Source: Promethearchaeota archaeon (lineage in GTDB: Archaea; Asgardarchaeota; Lokiarchaeia; Sigyniarchaeales; SOKP01). From it: a stretch of DNA of 30,225 bases. The position numbers and the translations under genes are program-made. Where the stretch lies: assembly GCA_019894975.1 (NCBI GenBank), contig JAGXNO010000042.1:1-30225 (forward strand), written 5' to 3'. Under the pieces are notes generated by a model. That model was given only the letters and a program-made list of their open reading frames with translations. It was not told the origin of the DNA and ran no database searches. Each line of letters opens with the position of its first letter. Position 1 is the stretch's first letter. Below, in pieces: positions 111 through 16,681 of this stretch.

Positions 111-407
111 TTATCCACAGCAGTTATTACTTTGAGGATTTTTAGATCGGGCTCGAGCGTCCCACAAACACCCACATCCTTTACGTTCTTGGAGAAGGAC
201 AGCCATTGCAGGGCAATTTCTTTGACAAGCACTACATTCAGTGCATCTATCAACATCATATATCTTGAATTTGCCATTATCAGTTGATTGTGGAATTCCA
301 AAAGGGCAAACTTCTGCACAGATACCGCAACCAGTGCATAATTCTTGATCAATTGATATTTTAGGCAAACTTATTGTAATATTTATTGAAGCGGGTTTTA
401 GGACCAT
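111..407 (-). CDS. hgcB: HgcB-like 2[4Fe-4S] ferredoxin with Cys-rich C-terminal tail
   Basis: Two CxxCxxCxxxCP motifs (CTGCGICAEVCP, CTECSACQRNCP); the second resembles the HgcB C(M/I)ECGAC signature. GCGC follows the second cluster and the protein ends NNCCG, as in the HgcB GxGC...CC tail. Lies directly downstream of the hgcA-like gene. ATG at 407 chosen; GTG at 416 is possible. The symbol indicates family resemblance, not proven Hg methylation. Confidence 0.8.
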   Translation of the reverse strand: MVLKPASINITISLPKISIDQELCTGCGICAEVCPFGIPQSTDNGKFKIYDVDRCTECSACQRNCPAMAVLLQERKGCGCLWDARARSKNPQSNNCCG

Positions 408-478
408 TTTAACCACATCTTTATTTTAATAGCTCTAATAATATAATATTCTTAGCAATATTTATGTTATTCTATTAT

Positions 479-2158
479 TTAGAATAAGACAAAACCTACA
501 CTAGCCAGAATTAAACCTACTATTAATAAGGGTAGATTAATTTTTCTGAAAGTTGGATATTCTTCCTGTATTTCACCTGGACTCGTTTCCATTGAGTATC
601 CGCTAAAGCTCATTGTAAAGAAGAAAGCAAACCAGAAATACAATCCTATACTCCATAGGCTTACTATAATTGAATCATGGATAAACCAAGTTAAACCACC
701 TAAGATTATTACGTTAAGAATTCCATACACTATTCCCTTCTTAATAAAACATCGTGTAAACTTTGTTATCGGAAAAAAGAAGGCAATTAAAGCATTTGTG
801 AGAAGTATCCACAGCCAAATCTCACCGATTCTCCAAAACTTATCAATCCAAAGGGGATTAAGGAAGCTAATAGCAAAAATGAGTACTAATAATCCTATAG
901 TTGGTTTGAGGAATATTTTTCTCAGTAAAAATGTAGAATGTGTTATAAATGCCCGTAATCGGTGTGAGAGCGTAAATTTTGCCAATTTCCATTTATCTGG
1001 TTTTTTTGCAGGGCGGTCTTCTAGATAACGGGGTAAATGTTTTGCCCAAACTGGTCCATAGAGGATATTAAATGGAAAATCTGGGGATTCACTCTTTATT
1101 ATAGGTGCAGCTACCCCCCCTGCTGAGAGTTGGGGCAATATAAGAGTTTTTTTAGTTGTTACACCAGTTATCCCAGAAGCTTCAACAGCTTCAATAACCT
1201 GTTTGTTTCCAAAGTTATCTCCACGTGCTGCACACCATACATTTATACCTTTTGAGTCTACACATAATACCCAAGCATCTATTCCTTTGAGTGCTCGCAT
1301 AACTTTAATATATGTGTAAATATAATTTGCGGTAACTATAATTGGGGCCTTTTCATTTGGTTTTCCTGATTGGTAGATTCCAGGTTCAATAGGGAGATGG
1401 TCTACTTGGCCTGTAAAAATACATTTATACATTTGCATTTGACTTCGGAAACCTTTAGATTTTCTTTGAGACGGTCGATAATATCCAGGCTTATCTCGAT
1501 TTACATCGTTAATTTTTTCCAATTCAAGAGCCTTGATTGAACCGTGTCTCCATTTTTTTTCGATATTTATTTTAAATCCTATTGGCTCCATATAATCAAA
1601 AAACCATTTCACAAGTGACGTAGTTGGTATCCGAAGTCTCCTTAATTTTTTCTTGAACCACCATCGTTTTATTTTGAAAATTATTTTCCAAAATCCAGAA
1701 GGTACAAATTCGGCACCAATCAGTATTTTGCCTCCAGGTTTTAGCATTCTCCAAGAGTTTCTAAGAAAGATTTGCTGTTCAAATGGTCCGAGTTCTGAAA
1801 GCATGAATGTGCTGACAATTAGATCCATTGAGTTCTCCTCAACAGGCAATTCTTTGATAGTTCCGATTTGATATATTAATTTAACATCTTGATCAGTCGG
1901 ATAATTTTTCATAGCATTGTTAATCATTTGAAAATTCTTATCTATTGCAAGAACATTGTTTCCTTTTAACGCTATTTTAGAGGCTAGATCACCTGTACCA
2001 CAACCTACCTCCAATATAGATTGTGATGTTCCAATTCGTTCTAAAATCCAATCTTTGACTTCAATATTTACACCTTTAGTTAAAGCAGTAAATTTTTCGT
2101 CATAGGTATCTGGTTCTTGCTCTAATTTTCTCATAAAGGTTACAGCGATTTTATTCAC
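479..2158 (-). CDS. hgcA: Class I SAM-dependent methyltransferase fused to HgcA-like corrinoid-binding domain and ~5 TM helices
   Basis: aa ~1-215: ILEVGCGTG, AIDKN, DLIVSTFMLSE, LKPGGKILI (class I MTase). aa ~255-395: PGIYQSGKP..APIIVTANY..DAWVLCVDSKGINVWCAARGDNFG..LILPQLSAGGV..YGPVWA, colinear with the HgcA/CdhD-like corrinoid domain, cap-helix Cys309. C-terminus has five hydrophobic segments and FTMSFSGYSMETS, resembling HgcA NFTGSTxxTS. GTG start preceded by AGGTG. The symbol indicates family resemblance. Confidence 0.85.
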   Translation of the reverse strand: MNKIAVTFMRKLEQEPDTYDEKFTALTKGVNIEVKDWILERIGTSQSILEVGCGTGDLASKIALKGNNVLAIDKNFQMINNAMKNYPTDQDVKLIYQIGTIKELPVEENSMDLIVSTFMLSELGPFEQQIFLRNSWRMLKPGGKILIGAEFVPSGFWKIIFKIKRWWFKKKLRRLRIPTTSLVKWFFDYMEPIGFKINIEKKWRHGSIKALELEKINDVNRDKPGYYRPSQRKSKGFRSQMQMYKCIFTGQVDHLPIEPGIYQSGKPNEKAPIIVTANYIYTYIKVMRALKGIDAWVLCVDSKGINVWCAARGDNFGNKQVIEAVEASGITGVTTKKTLILPQLSAGGVAAPIIKSESPDFPFNILYGPVWAKHLPRYLEDRPAKKPDKWKLAKFTLSHRLRAFITHSTFLLRKIFLKPTIGLLVLIFAISFLNPLWIDKFWRIGEIWLWILLTNALIAFFFPITKFTRCFIKKGIVYGILNVIILGGLTWFIHDSIIVSLWSIGLYFWFAFFFTMSFSGYSMETSPGEIQEEYPTFRKINLPLLIVGLILASVGFVLF

Positions 2159-2350: not shown

Positions 2351-2932
2351 ATGAGTGAAGAAGTAAGTGATAATACATTTTGGAAAGGAACTCTTCGAAA
2401 ACATAAGAATGCTCTAATTATAATGATTATAGCTGGAATATGCTTATTCATTGGAGCAATTTTAGTTGGGATTTGGGTATTAGAGGCAAACCCTTTTGTA
2501 GATCCACGTACCGGTACCTTTAACGATTGGACGCTTAATTATGTTGTTGGATTCATGATACTCATAATTCTATGGGAATTATTGTTAATTGGATTACCCG
2601 CAGCTATATTCTTTGGTGTTGGAGGATACTTATGGTGGAAGGGATTACCAGAAGAAGAAAAGAAAGAACACAAGGAACGAGAGAAAAAAAAGAAATCCCA
2701 TAAAGCAGAAAAATATGGTGGTGGTGGCGGGGGATTTAGTTTCGTTATGTTTATCGCATTTTGTATCTATATCGCAGTGCAAGGGAATTATAACGCCACA
2801 TTTGGCTCTGAACCGTACACATATTGGCTATATTCATATATGTTAACATTTATGTGGATTGTTATCGTTCTTGGGACACCTTGTTTAATCGCTTTTATTA
2901 TCTGGTATTTAGTAAAAGGAAGAAAAAAATAA
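2351..2932 (+). CDS. Hypothetical membrane protein (~4 TM) with charged loop and Gly6 tract
   Basis: 193-aa ATG ORF with four hydrophobic segments and a central EEEKKEHKEREKKKK...YGGGGGGF loop. TTTATATA TATA-like box near 2288-2296. Confidence 0.75.
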   Translation: MSEEVSDNTFWKGTLRKHKNALIIMIIAGICLFIGAILVGIWVLEANPFVDPRTGTFNDWTLNYVVGFMILIILWELLLIGLPAAIFFGVGGYLWWKGLPEEEKKEHKEREKKKKSHKAEKYGGGGGGFSFVMFIAFCIYIAVQGNYNATFGSEPYTYWLYSYMLTFMWIVIVLGTPCLIAFIIWYLVKGRKK

Positions 2933-2962
2933 GAATTAAAAAAAAAATTCATTTCTTTTTTT
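2933..2962. terminator. Probable bidirectional oligo-T terminator region between convergent genes
   Basis: A10 run (2938-2947, a T-tract on the minus strand) and a T-rich run (2952-2962) in the short gap between convergent stops. Archaeal intrinsic terminators are T-tracts. Confidence 0.4.
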
Positions 2963-5207
2963 ATATTTTTGGTTTAAAAATCTTTTTATCTATTAAATTA
3001 AGTACAGTCTCAGCGTCCTTAATTTGAAAGCCCTTTTTAGCGTAAAGTAAATAGGAGAGGAAAAAATAATCCGTCTTCCTCATTTTCATTACTTCTTCTG
3101 CTCTAATAATTAATGTTTTTTCGTCTGAGGATATTTTTACATTTTGAGTTTTTAATTCTAATGGATATATTAATGAAGTTTCTAAATGTATATCAAGTAA
3201 ATTTTTAATTCCACTAAACTTAGAGATTTCTCCTGTAAAATTTGCTAGGTCTTCACCATATTCACCATCAATATCATATGATAAGGATTTAATCGAGTCT
3301 AAGAAGTCTTGAGAAGGATTATCTTTCATTATAAGTAAAATTCTAAAATCTTTAAATTCAGACATTATTATTTTAGATTCAAGATATTCTAGTTTTATTG
3401 TTTGAGATTGTTCATTGGCGCCTGTTAATTCTATGCCAAAATTACGAATAGCTTCTAAAAATCCCGTAATGAGTGAAGCATCAATATCTTTCCCTGCAAG
3501 TAACTGTTCATAAATATTAAGCCCTGTGTTTTTTTCAATAATTATAAAATAATCTAAATTTAAAACATCCATGTATTTATTATAGATTTTCTGTCTGAAT
3601 TCCTGATGTTTCGTTTTCGATCTTTTTACAAGTTTATACGATATAAAACTAGCCCCTGCTAAAAGAACCGAGCCCACAACAATAATAACAATATAGAGTG
3701 GATCTAAAACAAATGGGACATTAACTTGAAAATCCTGAGACTTGATTCCTGCATTTTCCCCATCAAACCAATAAACATAAGCCCAATAAATTCCCTTGTT
3801 TGGGTTAGATGACAATGTATGAGCTAGAACAATTTCGCTTGTCGTAGTTACGGCAATCTCTACTGTTTCTCGATATTCTTCAAACCCTAAAGAATTTATT
3901 AACACATATGTAAGATTTCCAGGATTAATTGGGGGTAACACAGAAAATTCCAAATCCTGATCGGGTTCGAATTTAAGTTTTGGCGTTTTTAATGATAAAA
4001 CCACATTGGGTGAATTAGCATTTATTTCCCAAGAAGCCCCATCAATAAGAACATCATTTGGAATCACTAAGTACTCATCTAAAATGTTAATGGTAACATT
4101 AGGTGTAATGTCCACTCCATTTCTTTTTACTGAAAAGTTATACCATGAGGTAGGATAATTAAATTTGACAGTATAATTTTGGTGAATCTTAGTAAAATCA
4201 GGAGTTAACAACCAGCTATTTGCTGAATTATCTCTAAGTTCCAATTGACCATCAGAAAAGAAATGATTAACTAACTTAACTTGATAACTCAGATTGAAAA
4301 TTAAGCCAATAGATCGATTATTTCCAATTTCAATATTAAAATCTGTAGCATTTGGAGTAATAACATCATTAATTGTAAGATTTCCTGTACCTTTGCTGGG
4401 TCCATCTAAAATAGGGTATGAAGATCCATTAAGTTCAGCAGTCATGTTAACTTCTTCAGGGTTGAAAGATCGATTTACTCGTTGAATTAACTTATATAAT
4501 AGTGGCTTTCCAATATCATCTTGCTTCCATTCACCGTCATACACAGCTGTATGCAGATTTATGTTGTAAGATCCACTCGCATTATAAAACCAATTGTAGG
4601 TTGATTTATCTGTCGGAAACAATTCAGAACCATTTATTGCTAAATAATAACTTCCTGTAGTAAGCGAGATCTCTTCTTCAAATGTTTGTAGATGCCATTC
4701 AGGGCTGGATATATTTATTAAAGTGTTCGCTAAAATGTTTCCATCCGGAGCATCAGTACCTCCATCAAAACCTTGAATTTGAACATACACTGGAAAGACA
4801 GGAGTTCCTGTAATGTATCCATAAATATAAACACCAAATATAATTGTAGGTTCTGTAATATTGATTTCTACACCATAACCTAATTTTCCTCTGGGATCAA
4901 TTGTGTGAATGGCTTGTCCTTTATCTTCAACAGTTTTAACTTCTTCACCTAATTTAATGTCGCTGATATTCAATTGGATGTTTGTAATATTCCAACTCTC
5001 TGAAGGAAGGGATAGACTAATTGAACTTACACTAGTTTGATTATCTATATTTTCTGTCATTTCAGTCATTCGAGAACTAGTTGAAACTATAATTGTTTCA
5101 TCATGTCCCTGGGCATAAGAAATATTAATTAATTGAACAAGGCTTATAAACGCGATCGTTGTTAGAAAAAAGCTAATTATTAGCAAAGAATGATTAATTT
5201 TTCTCAT
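2961..5207 (-). CDS. Single-pass membrane protein: large ectodomain, TM, cytoplasmic longin-like domain (paralog B)
   Basis: N-terminal hydrophobic signal/anchor, a beta-rich ectodomain with about 18 N-x-S/T sequons, TM (LYIVIIVVGSVLLAGASFISY), then IIEKNTGLNIYEQ...DASLITGFLEAIRNFGIEL...IKLEY...IIMSEF...RILLIM, a longin-like pattern. ATG at 5207 preferred over TTG at 5231. Confidence 0.75.
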   Translation of the reverse strand: MRKINHSLLIISFFLTTIAFISLVQLINISYAQGHDETIIVSTSSRMTEMTENIDNQTSVSSISLSLPSESWNITNIQLNISDIKLGEEVKTVEDKGQAIHTIDPRGKLGYGVEINITEPTIIFGVYIYGYITGTPVFPVYVQIQGFDGGTDAPDGNILANTLINISSPEWHLQTFEEEISLTTGSYYLAINGSELFPTDKSTYNWFYNASGSYNINLHTAVYDGEWKQDDIGKPLLYKLIQRVNRSFNPEEVNMTAELNGSSYPILDGPSKGTGNLTINDVITPNATDFNIEIGNNRSIGLIFNLSYQVKLVNHFFSDGQLELRDNSANSWLLTPDFTKIHQNYTVKFNYPTSWYNFSVKRNGVDITPNVTINILDEYLVIPNDVLIDGASWEINANSPNVVLSLKTPKLKFEPDQDLEFSVLPPINPGNLTYVLINSLGFEEYRETVEIAVTTTSEIVLAHTLSSNPNKGIYWAYVYWFDGENAGIKSQDFQVNVPFVLDPLYIVIIVVGSVLLAGASFISYKLVKRSKTKHQEFRQKIYNKYMDVLNLDYFIIIEKNTGLNIYEQLLAGKDIDASLITGFLEAIRNFGIELTGANEQSQTIKLEYLESKIIMSEFKDFRILLIMKDNPSQDFLDSIKSLSYDIDGEYGEDLANFTGEISKFSGIKNLLDIHLETSLIYPLELKTQNVKISSDEKTLIIRAEEVMKMRKTDYFFLSYLLYAKKGFQIKDAETVLNLIDKKIFKPKI

Positions 5208-5329
5208 TATTTCCTTAATGACAACCTGCAAATATAAATATGATTGATATAGGATATCGAAATACTAATCACGTTCAAAATTAGAAAATTTCAATGAAAA
5301 TTTTGTTGATTTAAATAAAATATAATTTT

Positions 5330-7615
5330 CTAAATTAATTGGAATATCTTTTTTTCGATTAATTTAAATATAACTTCTACGTCTTTTGGGCTACATTCTT
5401 TTCCAGGCAATAATGATTTTATAAGAAAATGGTCTTGATTATTAGTTTTCATCCATGATACTGCTTTATTGATATAAAATCTTTCATTTTGTGTGATTCT
5501 TAGTTTGTCGAGTTTCTCAACAGGAGTAATTTTTAACGGATATATGAAAGCTACATTTAAATGTTGTTTAAGTAAATTCTCAACTGATTGGAACTTTTTA
5601 ACATCCCCATTAAAAGATTCTAGCATTGTTCCATAATTTTTATATACATCATAGGTTAATTCTTCAATCGAATACAAAAAGAACCTGGAGGGTCTTTCTT
5701 TCATTATTAGGATTAGTCTGACATTAATGAACTCGCTCATTAATACTATGGAATCTTTGTATTCTAGTTTAATTATCTGTGATTGATCTTCAACCTTGAT
5801 TAATTCAATTCCAAATGAATGTATTGCTTGTAAAAATCCGGATATTAAAGCTGCATCGATTTTTTTCTCCGTGTAATTTTGAGTATAAACATTTAACCCC
5901 GATCTTTTGTCTGACACCATTATATAATCAAGATTCAAGATGTCTATACATGAGTTAAATAATTTTTGTTTTTTTTCAATTTGTTTGTTTCTATATGATC
6001 TTACTGTTCGATATGACATAATACCTGCAATAGAGACTCCAATTATACTAATTATTATAACCGCAATCATCCATGGTTCTAATGTAAATGGAACGGGGGG
6101 AATAGATATTTGAAATTCCTGACTCGCCACCCCAATATCTGTATGATTATACCAATACACTTTTGCTGAATATGTTCCTTCAGTCCAATTTACGGGGATT
6201 TCGTATGAGAAAAAGTGTAGCCCTGAGACAGATTCTTCTACTTTAATTAATTCTGCTTTACCACTCGGTTTTATTATATAAAAAGTAAGATTACCTTGAG
6301 TGCTCGGAGCGTCAACAGAAAATTCTAATTCATCTCCACGTTTCCATACCGTAATTGTCATTTCTAAATTAAGATTAATGTTTGGTGAATATGAGTCTAT
6401 TTTCCATTCAGCTCCCTCTACTATAGTTCCATTAGGAATATTAATAGAATTATTAATCATATCAATGTTTACTAATGAGGTTACATTTTCCCATGGTCCA
6501 CTCAATTTTCTATATATAGTAAAATTATACCAATCGTTTGGAATCTCAAATTGTATAGAGTAGTTTTGAGAAATTCTATTGATTACTGGTGACATCGACC
6601 AAAAATTATACGAGTCTTCAGGTGTTGCAAGGGCTTCAGTTGTGAATGAATTTTTTAATTTAAGAGAATAATTATAATTGAATTTTAAGGTTACTGATCT
6701 ATTAATTATGATTGTAAGATCAAAATTGATTCCTTCCTGAAAATGATCCAGGTCACTAATTTCTAAAGATCCTGTACCAATAACTGATCCGTTAGTTATT
6801 TCAAAATTATCTCCATTGATTTCAGCCGTCATGTTTAGATCTGAAGGAAAATAACTTCGAGCAACTTTTTGATTTAATTTACAGAGAAAACTTGAATTTA
6901 TGGCTCCCGTACTCCAAGAAGTTATAAATGAAGATGTATGTAAAAATGGATTTTGAGGATCAAAATCATCTATTTGCCAATAATATTTTGCTTCTGTATT
7001 TAAGGGTAAATCAGTCCCATTCATCACTAGAGAATAATTTCCAGCCGGAAGTGTTATTGAGTTTAATGAAAAGTCTTGATAATACCAATCCAAATTGACA
7101 GAAATATTTAAATCTATAGATCTATAAATTGTATTGTTAGGACTCTGATTCCCTTCATCATATCCTTGTATTTGGAATTTAATAGTCTCGGTTGCTTGCG
7201 GGGTTTTATATGCTTTTATATAAACTCCAAATAATTCAGTGGGTTCCAAGATTTCAAACTGGGTACCTAAGGCAAATGTTCTAAATGTAGGATTTTTATT
7301 AATTACCAAATCCAGCCCTGTTTCACTGTCTTCAATCGTTTTGATTTCATTTCCAAGTCTTATATCAGTAAAGTTAATTTGTATGTCTGTGACTGTCCAA
7401 TTTTCTTCTGGGAGCGGAATATTTAATTCACTAACATTTGTTTTTATTCCTTCAATTTCCGAATATTCATTAAATTCTAAATTCGAAGAAAAAGATATAG
7501 GCTCACCATTAGTTTGAGCATAAGAGAATGGTAGGAATTGAATTAGACTAATTACAAGAAATATAAAAATAAATAATGCAACTAATTCTCGTTTAATCTT
7601 TACAAAATTTACCAT
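5330..7615 (-). CDS. Single-pass membrane protein: large ectodomain, TM, cytoplasmic longin-like domain (paralog A)
   Basis: Same architecture as 2961-5207, with shared blocks (DIRLGNEIKTIED/DIKLGEEVKTVED, NMTAEING/NMTAELNG, LISGFLQAIHSFGIEL/LITGFLEAIRNFGIEL). About 21 sequons counted in the ectodomain. Confidence 0.75.
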   Translation of the reverse strand: MVNFVKIKRELVALFIFIFLVISLIQFLPFSYAQTNGEPISFSSNLEFNEYSEIEGIKTNVSELNIPLPEENWTVTDIQINFTDIRLGNEIKTIEDSETGLDLVINKNPTFRTFALGTQFEILEPTELFGVYIKAYKTPQATETIKFQIQGYDEGNQSPNNTIYRSIDLNISVNLDWYYQDFSLNSITLPAGNYSLVMNGTDLPLNTEAKYYWQIDDFDPQNPFLHTSSFITSWSTGAINSSFLCKLNQKVARSYFPSDLNMTAEINGDNFEITNGSVIGTGSLEISDLDHFQEGINFDLTIIINRSVTLKFNYNYSLKLKNSFTTEALATPEDSYNFWSMSPVINRISQNYSIQFEIPNDWYNFTIYRKLSGPWENVTSLVNIDMINNSINIPNGTIVEGAEWKIDSYSPNINLNLEMTITVWKRGDELEFSVDAPSTQGNLTFYIIKPSGKAELIKVEESVSGLHFFSYEIPVNWTEGTYSAKVYWYNHTDIGVASQEFQISIPPVPFTLEPWMIAVIIISIIGVSIAGIMSYRTVRSYRNKQIEKKQKLFNSCIDILNLDYIMVSDKRSGLNVYTQNYTEKKIDAALISGFLQAIHSFGIELIKVEDQSQIIKLEYKDSIVLMSEFINVRLILIMKERPSRFFLYSIEELTYDVYKNYGTMLESFNGDVKKFQSVENLLKQHLNVAFIYPLKITPVEKLDKLRITQNERFYINKAVSWMKTNNQDHFLIKSLLPGKECSPKDVEVIFKLIEKKIFQLI

Positions 7616-7896: not shown

Positions 7897-8481
7897 TTAA
7901 ATTGCTAGTTTTTGAAGTAAAAACGCAAAATTTTTCCCTAAATTCTGAAATGTAAGCTTTCCTTCTGCATCTTTATCCATATCTTGAGCATTCATCACGT
8001 TAGGATTTACCCCAAGGTTCCAATAACTAGAACCAACAATGAACATATTATTTATCCCAAAGAAGTAGTTAATACTTGAATAAACATGAGTTGCTCCAGC
8101 TCGTCTTACGGAAACTACTGCAGCGCCAGCTTTATGTTTTAAAAGGTCTCCATTGACTTTACTTACAAGTCCTGCTCTCTCGATTAAAGCCTTCATTCTT
8201 GCAGGAGTGTCGGCAAAATAAGTGGGTGCCCCGAGGATAATACCATCTGCTTCAATCATTTTCCCTAAATATTCGTTTAATTTATCAGTTTTAACAGCAC
8301 ATTCCTTGTCCCTATTCTGTGTGCAGCGATAACAAGAGATACACCCTTGAATTTTATCCATCCCCATCCATATATATTCCACATCAACTCCCGCTGCCTT
8401 CAGTTCATTCATCACTATATCCAAACAAAAACGTGTGTTCCCATTCTCTCTTGGACTTCCATTAAATACAATAACTTTCAT
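7897..8481 (-). CDS. Iron-sulfur flavoprotein (Isf)/NADPH-dependent FMN reductase family flavodoxin-like protein
   Basis: N-terminal NGSPRENGNT phosphate loop, compact CxxCxxCx7C motif (CISCYRCTQNRDKEC), ADGIILGAPTYF, RRAGA and GSSYWN motifs. Confidence 0.9.
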   Translation of the reverse strand: MKVIVFNGSPRENGNTRFCLDIVMNELKAAGVDVEYIWMGMDKIQGCISCYRCTQNRDKECAVKTDKLNEYLGKMIEADGIILGAPTYFADTPARMKALIERAGLVSKVNGDLLKHKAGAAVVSVRRAGATHVYSSINYFFGINNMFIVGSSYWNLGVNPNVMNAQDMDKDAEGKLTFQNLGKNFAFLLQKLAI

Positions 8482-8699
8482 AATTTTAACCTAAAAGAAT
8501 TTAACATACAAATTATTTTTGAATAATTGATGTATCGCTTTTAATTTTTATGTTAATAAAAAATCTATAAGAAGAAGTTTATTTTGGTGTTTTTCTATTG
8601 GTTTGTATGGTTTATTGGAATACTAATTTGTCTAATTGTAGTAATCTTATACAAAATCCATAAAATTGAATTAAGATTCTTTTCCGTCTCATGTCATGA

Positions 8700-9608
8700 C
8701 TATCTCGGAATTTTCCGCTCCATAGTCAGAAATCTTGGATCTTTAATATAGGAATTTATGGTATGGATAAAATGATCCCTATCCTCTTTGATGTTATTCG
8801 ATTCGATGTAGCAGTAATTAGCAGCATGATCATTAAACACTTGTGAGGTAACATTTTCCCCCAAATTTGCTATAATATCTCTTTCTTCTATGAGGTAATC
8901 TACAGGATCAATTAGTTCAAATTCCCCCTTCTCTAAATCATACCATAAAGGTATATTAGATCCAACCCCCAAAGATCTGAATCGAAAGATAGTTGGATTG
9001 ATCTCAGTGAGAACTCTTGCGGTTTCTAGTACATGGTCTTTTGAATATTTTTTTCCCCCTAAACCTAATAAAACATATAAGCTAAGTTGTATTCCCGCTT
9101 CCATAACCTTTTTTCCCGCTTTTATGAATGAATTTGCATTAGTTCCTTTATGCATGAAACGCAGTACGGTATTACTGCCACTCTCTAACCCCATGTAAAC
9201 TATATCCAAGCCCGCATCCTTTAGTTCTTTCAATTCTTCATCTGATTTCCGCAAAATATCAAGAGCCTTCGAATAACAACTTACCCTTTTCACATTATTT
9301 AATTTTTCTCTAACATATTTAATAATTTTAACAAGGTGGTCAGTAGGAGCAGAAGTAGGATTTCCACCAGCTAAATAAACAGGGAAACCATGGTAATTGT
9401 TTTTTGCAGCTCTGTCAATTTGCTCAAAAACATACTCCAAGGGAAGGATTTCATATTCTTGGTAAACTTCATAGTCCTTTCCTTTATACATGTCACAGAA
9501 TTTACATTTGTTCCAAGAACAGCCACTCGTTACAGCTATTAATAAACTATATGCTTCTACAGGTGGTCTAAATAATATTTGTTTTGGTGAAACTTTTGAT
9601 CTGATCAT
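8700..9608 (-). CDS. Radical SAM protein, function unknown
   Basis: RPPVEAYSLLIAVTSGCSWNKCKFC (CxxxCxxC), YLAGGNP, YMGLESGS, LLGLGG and DHAANY motifs. Confidence 0.88.
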   Translation of the reverse strand: MIRSKVSPKQILFRPPVEAYSLLIAVTSGCSWNKCKFCDMYKGKDYEVYQEYEILPLEYVFEQIDRAAKNNYHGFPVYLAGGNPTSAPTDHLVKIIKYVREKLNNVKRVSCYSKALDILRKSDEELKELKDAGLDIVYMGLESGSNTVLRFMHKGTNANSFIKAGKKVMEAGIQLSLYVLLGLGGKKYSKDHVLETARVLTEINPTIFRFRSLGVGSNIPLWYDLEKGEFELIDPVDYLIEERDIIANLGENVTSQVFNDHAANYCYIESNNIKEDRDHFIHTINSYIKDPRFLTMERKIPR

Positions 9609-9889: not shown

Positions 9890-11137
9890 ATGCAAAATCG
9901 TCCTGAGTTACTTGCCCCTGTTCAAGATTGGAATTCATTAAAATTAATAGGCAGTTTGACTGATGCGGTATATTTTGGGGTAAAGAAGTTCAATATGAGA
10001 ATAAAAGCAAAAAATTTTGAACAAAATGATTTGAATAAAATAGTTGAATTTTGTCATAACCAAGAATCCCCTAAAAAGGCATATTTAACTACAAATATTA
10101 TAATCTATGATTCAGAATTACAAGATTTAGAAAGTCTTATATCTGAAGCTAAAGATGCGGGAATTGATGCAATTATTAGTCATGATCTTGCTACAATTCA
10201 AATTGCTAAACGATATAATGTTGATTTTCATATATCGACACAGGCAAATGTTTCCAATATAGAATCTGCTAGGTTCTATGAAGAGTTAGGTGCTGAGAGG
10301 ATAATATTGGCAAGAGAATTATCACTTAAGCAAATAAAATTGATAAAACACCTTCTAAATAAAACTAAAATTGAAAGCTTTGTACATGGTTCAATGTGTA
10401 CTTCAATTTCAGGAAGATGTTATTTTTCTGCTACTATTTGTGACTCTGAAGAATATTCTGCTAACCGTGGAAACTGTATTCAACCGTGTAGAAGGGAATG
10501 GAGGGTAATTGATGATAAAAACAATGAATTCTTATATGATGGCCAGATGTTTCTTAATGCGAAAGATTTGTGTATGATAGAATATATTCCTGAATTAATT
10601 GATGCACACATTGATGCCTTCAAGATAGAGGGTCGTATGAAAGATCCTGTTTACGTTAAAACCGTGGTTGAATGCTATAAAGAAGCTTTAGATTCCTATT
10701 ACGAGGAGAGTTATACTGAAAAAAAAATAAAAAATTGGCTCGAAAGGCTTTCTACGGTATTTAATCGTGGTTTTCATACAGGATTTTATTTTCATAGACC
10801 AACTGTAGAAGACATTGAATTAAAAAAGAGAGGAAACATTTCAGCCTATAAAAAGTCTTATCTGGGAAAAATTCTTTCTTATGATGAAAACAGTAAATCT
10901 GCTAATATTTTACTTGAAAACTTAGAAAATCCTTTGATGCTAGGAGATGAGATAATTATCACTGGTCCCACTACATATATGATTGAAACAATAAAGAAGA
11001 TGATCTATAAGGGGGAAAAAGTTAAAAGTATCACAAGAAAAAGGTACACAACTCCAGTTAGGATTAATTTACGCCTGAACACTGAAGTGAAAAAAGAGGA
11101 TAAAATTTATATTTTATCCAAGAATTCTAAAGTGTGA
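9890..11137 (+). CDS. Peptidase U32 family Fe-S protein (TrhP/RlhA-like, probable RNA hydroxylation)
   Basis: [45 protein letters not shown] and FKIEGRMK, including the four conserved Cys. ATG at 9890 preferred over TTG at 9878. Confidence 0.92.
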
Positions 11138-14440: not shown

Positions 14441-16681
14441 TCAAAAATTTAAAAAATGATCTAAATCTAGTTGTTTTTCTTCAGGATCTTTTTTATTAAC
14501 TTCATCAAAATTGAAGTATTCATTTAAATCTGCTTTTATCAAACCTTTTTGAACTAAATCTTCTCTTAGTTCTTGAGTATTATGATTGTTAATTGAAGAT
14601 AAATCATAGTTATAGAGCATTTTTAGTGAGTTTAAATCATGGTTATAATTAAATTCGATTATTTTGTCATAGAGATCTTTATCATTACCTTCTAAACCAA
14701 TGAGATCTGCACCTAAATTATTACTAACAATTCGCACATTTTCAGCATATTTAATCTTATCGTCTACAGGCAAGTTTTTTATTTCATCATATAGATACCA
14801 TCTAGTTCCAACAATAAATAAGAGAGTGTCTTCAGATTGATATTTTTCGATCTTATCGATAAGATTTTCATCACTAACATCGTTAGTAAAATCGAATTGA
14901 GTGCTTTTTATTTGATCTAAATTCTTAGGATTTAATTCCAGTTTATTTTTCAAATCTTCTCCGGTTTGAGAATTTGATAGCCTTTGATGTATGAAGTTAT
15001 TGTCTTCAAGTATTAATCCATCAGGTCTTCTTTTATCAGGATATATATTTGGTTCTGCATAATATTTCTGATTAGGAAGATCATTTATTGTTTTTGTTAT
15101 AAGAGAGTTTATATTTAAATGTGTAAACGACCCAATTTCAAGATTTTCATCGATAGGAAACCTTTCTCTATGATCTTCAATATTATCTTGAAACACGTCT
15201 CTTTGAGAAATATTTGAAACTGAAGGTGAACTTACACTATTCTTTTCTGCAATTTCTGATATATTTAACTTAGTATTCATAATATCTTTGACAATGTTAT
15301 TCTTCGTTACCTTGGTAATTGATTCATAGGCTTTCCATGTATTTTCATATTCCTGTTTAGATATCGTTTTTTTAGCCAACTTACAAATATACTCAGTAGA
15401 TACACTAAAATGTTTTCCAACTTCGTTTAAAGACCGAGGATTTGGTTTGTTAATTTCGTTTTTTATAGTTTTTGTTATTTTCAAAGCAAGCTCCTTTGGA
15501 ATTTCAGTTGTTAATGGTGCCCATATTTTATCATGAAGGTCTTTAGGGATAACTTGCTTGGCAAGTCTCTTAATTGTATCCGCTCCTACCTCAGGGAAAT
15601 CTTTATGAATGTTTCGTAATGTTCTTGGATGTTCTTTCAAAGATTCATCTTTAATTGAATTCATTATTTCATTTTTAATTTCGTTAGGTATTTTTTTAAT
15701 TGCTGGCCATAAATCTTTATATCTATCAGGATAGATTTCTCTAGCTAATTCCATAACATAAGTATGGGATGCACCTGGAAAATCATTTGAAATACTTCTT
15801 AAAGAACTAGGATTTTCTTTTTGGACTTCTTCTTTCAAACGATCCTCAATTACTTTTTTTGTCTCATTGGATACTGATCCACTTGTAGACCGCCACATAT
15901 TTCTATACAAATCTTGAGATATTTCATTCTTGGCAATTCTATGTACAGTTTTTTCTGAAATTTTTGGAAAATCTTTCGCAATCTTATAGAGAGAATCATG
16001 TTGAGCACCTAGTTTATAATTTTCTGATTCTTGATTTAACCTGTTTTTAATCCTTTCTTTAATTTCAGGATCCAAAGAAATGTCAAATCTCTGATGATGA
16101 GCATCTTTATTATCATTATATACTTCTTTCAACGATATATTTCCAACAGTTCCTCGACTAACCGACAAACCATCTTCTCTTAAGCTCGTTGAAATTTTTG
16201 TTTGAGAGAAATCTGAATTCTCGATTTTATCTTTAATAAAGCTGTAAATTTCTTGGTTCTTATGTATAGCATAGATTTTATTAATTAGCTCCAGGTCTGA
16301 TCCATTCTTTTTGACCCAATCCATGAAATCTTTTCTAAGGTTCTTTCCATGGTTGGGATATTTACCTGTTTCATTATAGTAGGTTCTAAAGGTGTTTTGA
16401 ATTCTTTCATCAAATAAGTTATTGTAGTTATGAATATCTACATCTTCTTGATTTTTCTCTTCTAAATATTCTCGATTAAAATTTTCCTTAATTGTATCAT
16501 TCGTCTCTACATTTGGATTAAAGCTTTCAAAATCTGTTAAAGAGCCTTGAACTTCTTCGCTTGATTCCATTTTTGCATTTAATTCATTCGACACAATCTT
16601 TTCATCCTTTCCCTTATCTATAGATTTATTCATATCCTGAGGGATTTCACGATCACCCTTATCATTACCATACTCACTCAA
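14441..16681 (-). CDS. Multi-HTH repeat protein with C-terminal PD-(D/E)XK-like nuclease domain
   Basis: 746-aa ORF, TTG start with GGTGA upstream. Acidic N-terminus, six ~60-aa helical repeats (aa ~143-508), then IGSFTH...YYAEPNI..RRPDGLIL...QFDFT...KIEKYQ...LFIVG. The CDS is secure; the nuclease call is inference. Confidence 0.6.
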   Translation of the reverse strand: MSEYGNDKGDREIPQDMNKSIDKGKDEKIVSNELNAKMESSEEVQGSLTDFESFNPNVETNDTIKENFNREYLEEKNQEDVDIHNYNNLFDERIQNTFRTYYNETGKYPNHGKNLRKDFMDWVKKNGSDLELINKIYAIHKNQEIYSFIKDKIENSDFSQTKISTSLREDGLSVSRGTVGNISLKEVYNDNKDAHHQRFDISLDPEIKERIKNRLNQESENYKLGAQHDSLYKIAKDFPKISEKTVHRIAKNEISQDLYRNMWRSTSGSVSNETKKVIEDRLKEEVQKENPSSLRSISNDFPGASHTYVMELAREIYPDRYKDLWPAIKKIPNEIKNEIMNSIKDESLKEHPRTLRNIHKDFPEVGADTIKRLAKQVIPKDLHDKIWAPLTTEIPKELALKITKTIKNEINKPNPRSLNEVGKHFSVSTEYICKLAKKTISKQEYENTWKAYESITKVTKNNIVKDIMNTKLNISEIAEKNSVSSPSVSNISQRDVFQDNIEDHRERFPIDENLEIGSFTHLNINSLITKTINDLPNQKYYAEPNIYPDKRRPDGLILEDNNFIHQRLSNSQTGEDLKNKLELNPKNLDQIKSTQFDFTNDVSDENLIDKIEKYQSEDTLLFIVGTRWYLYDEIKNLPVDDKIKYAENVRIVSNNLGADLIGLEGNDKDLYDKIIEFNYNHDLNSLKMLYNYDLSSINNHNTQELREDLVQKGLIKADLNEYFNFDEVNKKDPEEKQLDLDHFLNF
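15158..16255 (-). repeat. Intragenic array of six degenerate HTH-like repeats (A-B-B-B-B-A)
   Basis: Inner four repeats carry SLxxIxxDFP-like motifs and terminal Trp at aa 263, 325, 387 and 449 (62-aa spacing). Outer two share SVS..VxNIS..V..DN...H..RF. Visible at protein level only. Confidence 0.8.

Follow-up and report, generated by a model that had tools for sequence, protein, structure and literature searches.

The canonical mercury-methylating pair consists of HgcA, a corrinoid protein with a cysteine-bearing cap helix (motif NVWCAAGK; PMC10087281) and five transmembrane helices, and HgcB, an adjacent ferredoxin with two [4Fe-4S] clusters (2[4Fe-4S]), an extra cysteine, and a C-terminal cysteine pair, C94/C95, required for mercury methylation (PMC11588087). 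Purified HgcAB takes its methyl group from S-adenosylmethionine (SAM) via methylcob(III)alamin with cysteine ligation (PMC11588087). The canonical genes have ars genes as neighbors and are regulated by an ArsR that responds to arsenic and to S-adenosylhomocysteine (PMC7438021; 10.1101/2022.10.17.512643). A second type, represented by Pyrococcus furiosus, associates a "fused HgcAB" (NF043039) with a separate methyltransferase, CpaM (NF043040). We analyzed a stretch of 30,225 nt from a Promethearchaeota archaeon (contig JAGXNO010000042.1 of assembly GCA_019894975.1), hereafter the window. It encodes a CpaM-type methyltransferase fused in frame to an HgcA-like corrinoid protein, together with an HgcB-like ferredoxin. 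These genes share with the canonical pair the cap-helix cysteine, the five transmembrane helices, the adjacent ferredoxin with its extra cysteine and cysteine pair, the link to SAM and, in relatives, the links to ArsR and ars genes. Judging from their sequences, they probably specify a three-module, membrane-anchored corrinoid system that would relay methyl groups from SAM through cobalt to a soft metal(loid). As natural acceptors, As(III) and related metalloids would be likelier than Hg(II).

A methyltransferase–HgcA-like fusion and its ferredoxin partner

The fusion is encoded by one intact open reading frame (ORF) joining both domains (table 1), as an earlier note on this DNA had described. 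An alternative start codon, ATG 2134, yields a protein of 551 aa and is likelier to be the true start, because most homologs are 551 aa long and the match to the CpaM profile begins at residue 7. The database protein P0001 (551 aa) is identical to the fusion of the window. Residue numbers of Pfam and NCBIfam domains and of Cys309 refer below to the 559-aa form.

Table 1. Features of the fusion gene and of the ferredoxin gene in the window.
Feature	Coordinates (nt)	Strand	Remarks
HgcB-like 2[4Fe-4S] ferredoxin, 101 aa	111..416	-	NF040864 and Fer4 families
C-terminal vicinal Cys pair (residues 99-100)	117..122	-	CC near the C-terminus in most homologs
GCGC motif (residues 80-83)	168..179	-	Directly after second Fe-S cluster
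CpaM::HgcA-like fusion gene	479..2158	-	Uninterrupted ORF; 559 aa from GTG 2158
Transmembrane domain, five predicted helices	482..922	-	Hydropathy
Corrinoid-binding domain (CdhD/HgcA-type Rossmann)	1121..1438	-	PF03599 at aa 241-346
Cap-helix motif NVWCAARG	1220..1243	-	Cys309 = nt 1232-1234
Class I SAM methyltransferase domain, CpaM type (aa 7-213)	1520..2140	-	NF043040, Methyltransf_11

More than 120 protein clusters (90% identity level), labeled Promethearchaeota, Thor-, Hod-, Hermod-, and Lokiarchaeota, share 62–89% identity with the fusion over 95–100% of its length. In the genome survey proposed in the earlier note, 169 of 400 species genomes of the Asgard phylum had a match at E <= 1e-30, with 104 of 134 genomes positive in the family of the window. 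Among the matches listed, most cover the whole query without stops, and other Asgard families harbor full-length versions at 30–36% identity. About 30 clusters at 50% identity with the methyltransferase plus HgcA-like architecture were recovered by an exhaustive profile search, and bacterial members were found in Ca. Abyssubacteria and Anaerolineae. As the architecture recurs in hundreds of independent assemblies, it is not explained by chance or by misassembly, including the chimeric junction that the earlier note had considered. The fusion is a real and widely conserved protein whose architecture is old, phylum-wide, and also bacterial. The note was right about an Asgard-like host; the fusion architecture, in which it placed any novelty, is not peculiar to this window but occurs throughout the phylum and in bacteria, and triple fusions exist as well.

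The AlphaFold2 (AF2) model of the fusion is confident over the whole chain (predicted local distance difference test, pLDDT, 92.8; predicted template modeling score, pTM, 0.88). With this model as query, Foldseek ranked the deposited HgcAB model 9a0b_A first; class I methyltransferases came next and are matched by the methyltransferase part of the fold. A sequence search of the PDB retrieved no solved HgcA, the sole structural match being the deposited computed model 9a0b.

In the N-terminal part, placed by the earlier note at residues ~1–215, the CpaM profile aligns over positions 3–214 of 216 with 135.4 bits (E 1.8e-39). This score lies below the cut-off of 180, yet it is the best NCBIfam match, the next family reaching 59 bits, 76 less. 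The Pfam families Methyltransf_11/25 match residues 49–147 (Methyltransf_11 E 3e-17). The SAM-binding motif LEVGCGTG (GxGxG) and the acidic residues are intact, and in 45 diverse fusions, down to 22% identity, G44, G46, G48, D65, D104, and E142 (numbered on the 551-aa form) show no or almost no variation. Hodarchaeales orthologs of the fusion already bear the NCBI name CpaM, and with the CpaM model the fusion of Abyssubacteria reaches 231 bits. The resemblance to CpaM suggested in the earlier note is thus borne out. A word-indexed search with the methyltransferase domain alone returned only fragments of the fusion and no close relatives that stand alone; access to the stand-alone CpaM genes came via their HgcAB-like neighbors.

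The corrinoid part matches the CdhD Pfam family PF03599 (E 5e-12) and the HgcA model NF040863 (HgcA_corrinoid; aa 253–552, 163.1 bits, E 9e-48, cut-off 275). The HgcAB_like model NF043039 gives 170.8 bits (cut-off 285), aligned only to profile positions 14–247, and the CdhE gamma/CdhE-AcsC model NF003195 gives 67 bits (cut-off 306), in the C-terminal domain only. By these scores, HgcA and HgcAB-like proteins are equally close to the corrinoid part, and CdhE is far from it. The cap helix reads GINVWCAARGDNFG and includes Cys309, the presumed cobalt ligand; its N, W, and C are invariant in the 45 fusions. Five transmembrane segments were predicted by hydropathy, in line with the long helices of the AF2 model over residues 389–550 (551-aa form, pLDDT >83). 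The HgcA-type domain with its cap-helix cysteine and five helices therefore stands as first described, and the HgcA, HgcB, CdhD, and Methyltransf profiles, run on each domain, support all domain calls. A complex prediction of the methyltransferase domain with the corrinoid and transmembrane part scored 0.11 and was counted neither for nor against their interaction.

The ferredoxin gene lies downstream of the fusion, as the earlier note had it, at a distance of 62 nt and not ~70 bp. HgcB (NF040864) is the best NCBIfam match of its product (57.1 bits, cut-off 99). Two CxxCxxCxxxCP motifs are followed by GCGC after the second cluster and by a C-terminal CC, in agreement with the 2[4Fe-4S] ferredoxin and HgcB-type cysteine tail that had been reported. 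The sequence GCGC(L/I/V)W is kept in nearly all aligned homologs, at what we take to be the position of HgcB Cys73. We compared the neighbors of the fusion gene in a sample of 40 Asgard loci. A ferredoxin homolog is encoded at most 65 nt downstream in 37 of them and is fused in the other three.

The three modules, CpaM (M), the HgcA-like protein (A), and the ferredoxin (B), occur as separate genes (M, A, B), with A and B fused (M, AB), with M and A fused (MA, B) as in the window, or as one protein (MAB). The fully split locus has a divergent ArsR and falls within the Asgard clade. In the M, AB arrangement, the HgcAB-like fusion genes share a 4-nt overlap with stand-alone CpaM genes, which exceed the CpaM cut-off (271 and 263 bits). 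The MAB proteins are 580–645 aa long, one of them scoring 245 bits on CpaM and 353 bits on HgcAB_like. The coexistence of split, pairwise-fused, and all-fused arrangements constitutes Rosetta-stone evidence that CpaM, the HgcA-like protein, and the ferredoxin are functionally linked. In one Asgard family (f19, loci L078–L080), the fusion ORF of 589–601 aa includes the ferredoxin domain; triple fusions are thus found both within Asgard archaea and in unnamed metagenomic proteins.

Placement relative to canonical HgcA and other known systems

We built a quick tree of 105 rows and a careful IQ-TREE phylogeny of 65 rows with CdhE as outgroup. According to the latter, canonical HgcA forms a clade supported at 100/100 from which the window protein is absent. 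The window protein belongs to an Asgard clade with the cap motif NVWCAAR (99/93), and HgcAB-like proteins, triple fusions, and some methyltransferase fusions form another clade (99/87). The sister group of the Asgard clade differs between the trees, being the HgcAB-like proteins in the quick tree (support 87) and canonical HgcA in the careful one (86/76), and in the approximately unbiased (AU) test the topology opposing canonical HgcA to all others was not rejected (p 0.44). Because of this disagreement and of the AU result, we make no claim on the sister group.

The window pair has the cysteine ligand and the C-terminal transmembrane domain of about five helices expected of HgcA, and the HgcB attributes of two CxxCxxCxxxCP motifs, an extra cysteine after the second cluster, a C-terminal cysteine pair, and co-location with an hgcA-like gene; the methyltransferase shows the association with an HgcA-like corrinoid protein typical of CpaM, here by in-frame fusion. 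The window pair differs from the canonical one by the additional N-terminal CpaM domain of ~215 aa and by its motifs. The high-stringency Hg-MATE cap motif N[V/I]WC[A/S][A/G/S]GK is not matched, RG replacing GK while N, W, and C are kept, nor is the HgcB motif C(M/I)ECGA, the ferredoxin reading CTECSA. Reference HgcA sequences score 393–429 bits on NF040863, against 163.1 for the window protein. With scores below the NCBIfam cut-offs, no match to the Hg-MATE motifs, and a position outside the canonical clade, the window protein is by these sequence criteria HgcA-like and not canonical HgcA. Its clade of HgcA paralogs is a distinct one, made up mostly of Asgard proteins. The relationship to HgcA proposed in the earlier note is therefore upheld; identity with canonical HgcA is not (163 vs 275 bits, motifs, and tree).

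In the tree of Lin et al. (2023), for which the first 327 columns of the alignment had been trimmed, Asgard homologs fell into a "fused HgcAB" subtree; these authors make no mention of a methyltransferase domain. Unlike "fused HgcAB", the Asgard proteins that we sampled are mostly methyltransferase–HgcA fusions with a separate ferredoxin. The P. furiosus type consists of the same three modules and likewise stands outside canonical HgcA. However, its methyltransferase is separate and its A and B modules are fused, whereas in the window M and A are fused and B is separate; its cap motif is A[AS][ASCT] instead of AAR, and the window protein lies in a different, well-supported clade.

Two other systems share single modules with the fusion. 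The large subunit CdhE/AcsC of the corrinoid iron-sulfur protein has a homologous corrinoid-binding Rossmann domain (PF03599) but an N-terminal Fe-S domain and neither a cysteine cap helix, a transmembrane domain, nor a methyltransferase; the window genome encodes a separate bona fide CdhE elsewhere (482 bits). The arsenite methyltransferase ArsM has the class I SAM methyltransferase fold and, in relatives, shares an ars operon with the fusion. However, the ArsM model, with a cut-off of 263 bits, gives the window methyltransferase domain only 40, and ArsM uses its own cysteine residues and no corrinoid.

Arsenic-linked loci and a candidate methyl relay

In nine of the 40 loci, representing five genera and two families, a gene for the arsenite exporter ACR3 lies upstream of the fusion on the same strand, and in seven of these it is the immediate neighbor, with gaps of 12–48 nt. 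The ACR3-linked loci carry a divergent ArsR gene with a CVC metalloid site, and some also DUF166. Over the whole sample, an ArsR with this site was found at 17 loci and ArsM (347 bits) at one, which is among the ACR3-linked loci. The ACR3-linked genomes include those of two cultured archaea, Promethearchaeum syntrophicum (WP_147664869.1) and Ca. Lokiarchaeum (UYP44054.1). In a second fusion clade (family f31, 33% identity), an ArsR-family gene precedes the fusion by 3–6 nt on the same strand.

The fusion and ferredoxin genes look co-transcribed. In the relay that we propose, the ferredoxin would reduce cobalt to Co(I), and the methyltransferase domain would bind SAM and offer its methyl group to Co(I), giving CH3-Co(III) in which Cys309 would be the lower ligand. 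A soft metal(loid) held by the GCGC and CC thiols of the ferredoxin would then receive the methyl group. The ars operon context in relatives makes arsenite or a relative the best-guess acceptor, more likely than Hg(II). The statement of the earlier note that SAM had been reported as methyl donor of HgcAB agrees with the literature (PMC11588087).

Several observations weigh against this proposal. Ars genes are absent beside the pair in the window and in its closest relatives; their genus has either an upstream MarR gene or only a divergent membrane protein, and the ACR3 and ArsM genes of the window genome are on other contigs. The counts of ars linkage are not independent, because the ars-linked loci are related to one another. 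Finally, since purified canonical HgcAB uses SAM without any methyltransferase domain, this domain may have another role in the fusion.

A more far-reaching version, which we put forward as a tentative possibility, is that the module performs an anaerobic, corrinoid-dependent methylation and detoxification of arsenite (or antimonite), controlled by ArsR and coupled to ACR3 export, and that metalloid handling is ancestral to the whole HgcA family. If so, the way in which the corrinoid is loaded would be apparent from the dedicated SAM-methyltransferase module.

Alternatively, the methyltransferase domain might only repair the cofactor, re-methylating oxidized cobalt with electrons from the ferredoxin, the routine methyl donor being a methyl-pterin of the Wood-Ljungdahl pathway. 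The SAM-dependent reactivation module of methionine synthase (MetH) provides a precedent, the genome encodes CdhD and CdhE, and the ferredoxin partner is always present among the 40 loci. We consider this role unlikely: none of the 40 loci has a linked pterin methyltransferase gene, SAM is a stoichiometric donor for canonical HgcAB (PMC11588087), and the methyltransferase remains linked or fused across very divergent clades.

It is quite unlikely that the pair is a true mercury methylase, that is, an HgcAB ortholog that gained a SAM-binding domain and works on Hg(II). Conservation of the cysteine cap helix, the five transmembrane helices, and the HgcB-like cysteine pairs would fit such a function, as would the sister position to canonical HgcA in the careful tree, supported at only 86/76, and Asgard homologs figure among the putative methylators of some surveys (PMC12484752). 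However, the score of 163 bits against a cut-off of 275, the cap NVWCAARG without GK, CTECSA in place of C(M/I)ECGA, and the position outside the 100/100 canonical clade all argue against it. Moreover, no methylmercury was formed by those organisms with non-canonical fused HgcAB that have been assayed (PMC4646819, PMC10087281), and the gene context is one of arsenic, not mercury.

We regard as very doubtful that the corrinoid demethylates methylated arsenicals or reductively dehalogenates halomethanes, with a side role for the methyltransferase. CCl4 dechlorination by expressed HgcAB was described in a 2026 preprint (10.64898/2026.04.26.720869), and the ars context would also suit the handling of methylarsenicals. 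Against this, the intact invariant SAM-binding motifs argue for the use of SAM, and the neighbor comparison revealed no dehalogenase-type genes nearby. An assembly or gene-calling artefact merging two adjoining genes, for which the one relative with a split three-gene version could be invoked, has a negligible probability, as the frame is uninterrupted in the window, the matches listed are full length with no internal stops in over 100 genomes assembled independently, among them closed ones from cultured strains, and the AF2 model is confident through the linker.

Neighboring genes, annotation, and significance

At seven to eight ars-linked loci, two small conserved genes follow the HgcB-like gene (8008–8397(+) and 8435–8788(+) at locus L048, corresponding to 10023–10803 at L015). 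One product is cysteine-rich, with a DACACEW motif and SCC repeats, and the other ends in QPDVGC. They match no Pfam or NCBIfam family and may be further parts of the system.

In the window, genes for a flavin mononucleotide (FMN) reductase (7897–8481(-)) and a radical SAM protein (8700–9608(-)) lie upstream of the fusion on the same strand, and FMN reductase homologs directly precede the fusion in some members of the genus (L045, L046, L049). We rejected, on the basis of NCBIfam, the identification of this reductase and its homologs as ArsH, as they have only generic WrbA/SsuE-type matches. Divergent from the fusion, a gene at 2351–2932(+) encodes a multi-transmembrane protein of 193 aa belonging to no family, with a middle region rich in Lys/Glu and Gly; its position is kept at eight loci of the same genus. 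Three genes (2961–5231(-), 5330–7615(-), and 14441–16681(-)), the first two in tandem, encode proteins of ~750 aa that have a hydrophobic segment at the N-terminus and match no Pfam family. At L013, L014, L042, L044, and L045, the fusion is preceded upstream by similarly sized ORFs in tandem, and those form one cluster. In a distant fusion clade (family f16), the gene directly upstream on the same strand encodes DNA-3-methyladenine glycosylase I (Tag, 237 bits; 5292–5873(+) at L065 and 5287–5874(+) at L069), a methylation-damage repair enzyme and an odd neighbor for a methylating system.

Public annotations of the fusion are misleading. In Ca. Lokiarchaeum and P. syntrophicum (loci L060 and L058), it is annotated as "Ubiquinone biosynthesis O-methyltransferase, mitochondrial" or "methyltransferase domain-containing protein", and an earlier annotation of the same genes reads "Acetyl-CoA decarbonylase/synthase complex subunit gamma" (CdhE gamma). 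The modules and their association are already in databases, through the NCBI CpaM and HgcAB-like models. Our literature search, in which subscription journals were thinly covered, found no paper on the methyltransferase–HgcA fusion, its distribution across the phylum, the complete set of module permutations, or the ars context in cultured Asgard archaea.

These findings bear on two questions about HgcAB: why it exists and how its cobalamin acquires a methyl group. As a conserved natural fusion, the protein described here is independent genomic evidence that SAM chemistry and the HgcA-type corrinoid fold work together, and the ArsR/ACR3 operon context points to a metalloid substrate. Neither the inclusion of Asgard homologs in counts of putative mercury methylators nor their placement in the "fused HgcAB" clade fits the evidence presented here. 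The ars-linked fusion is present in two cultured Asgard archaea, and experiments on its induction and activity are therefore possible.

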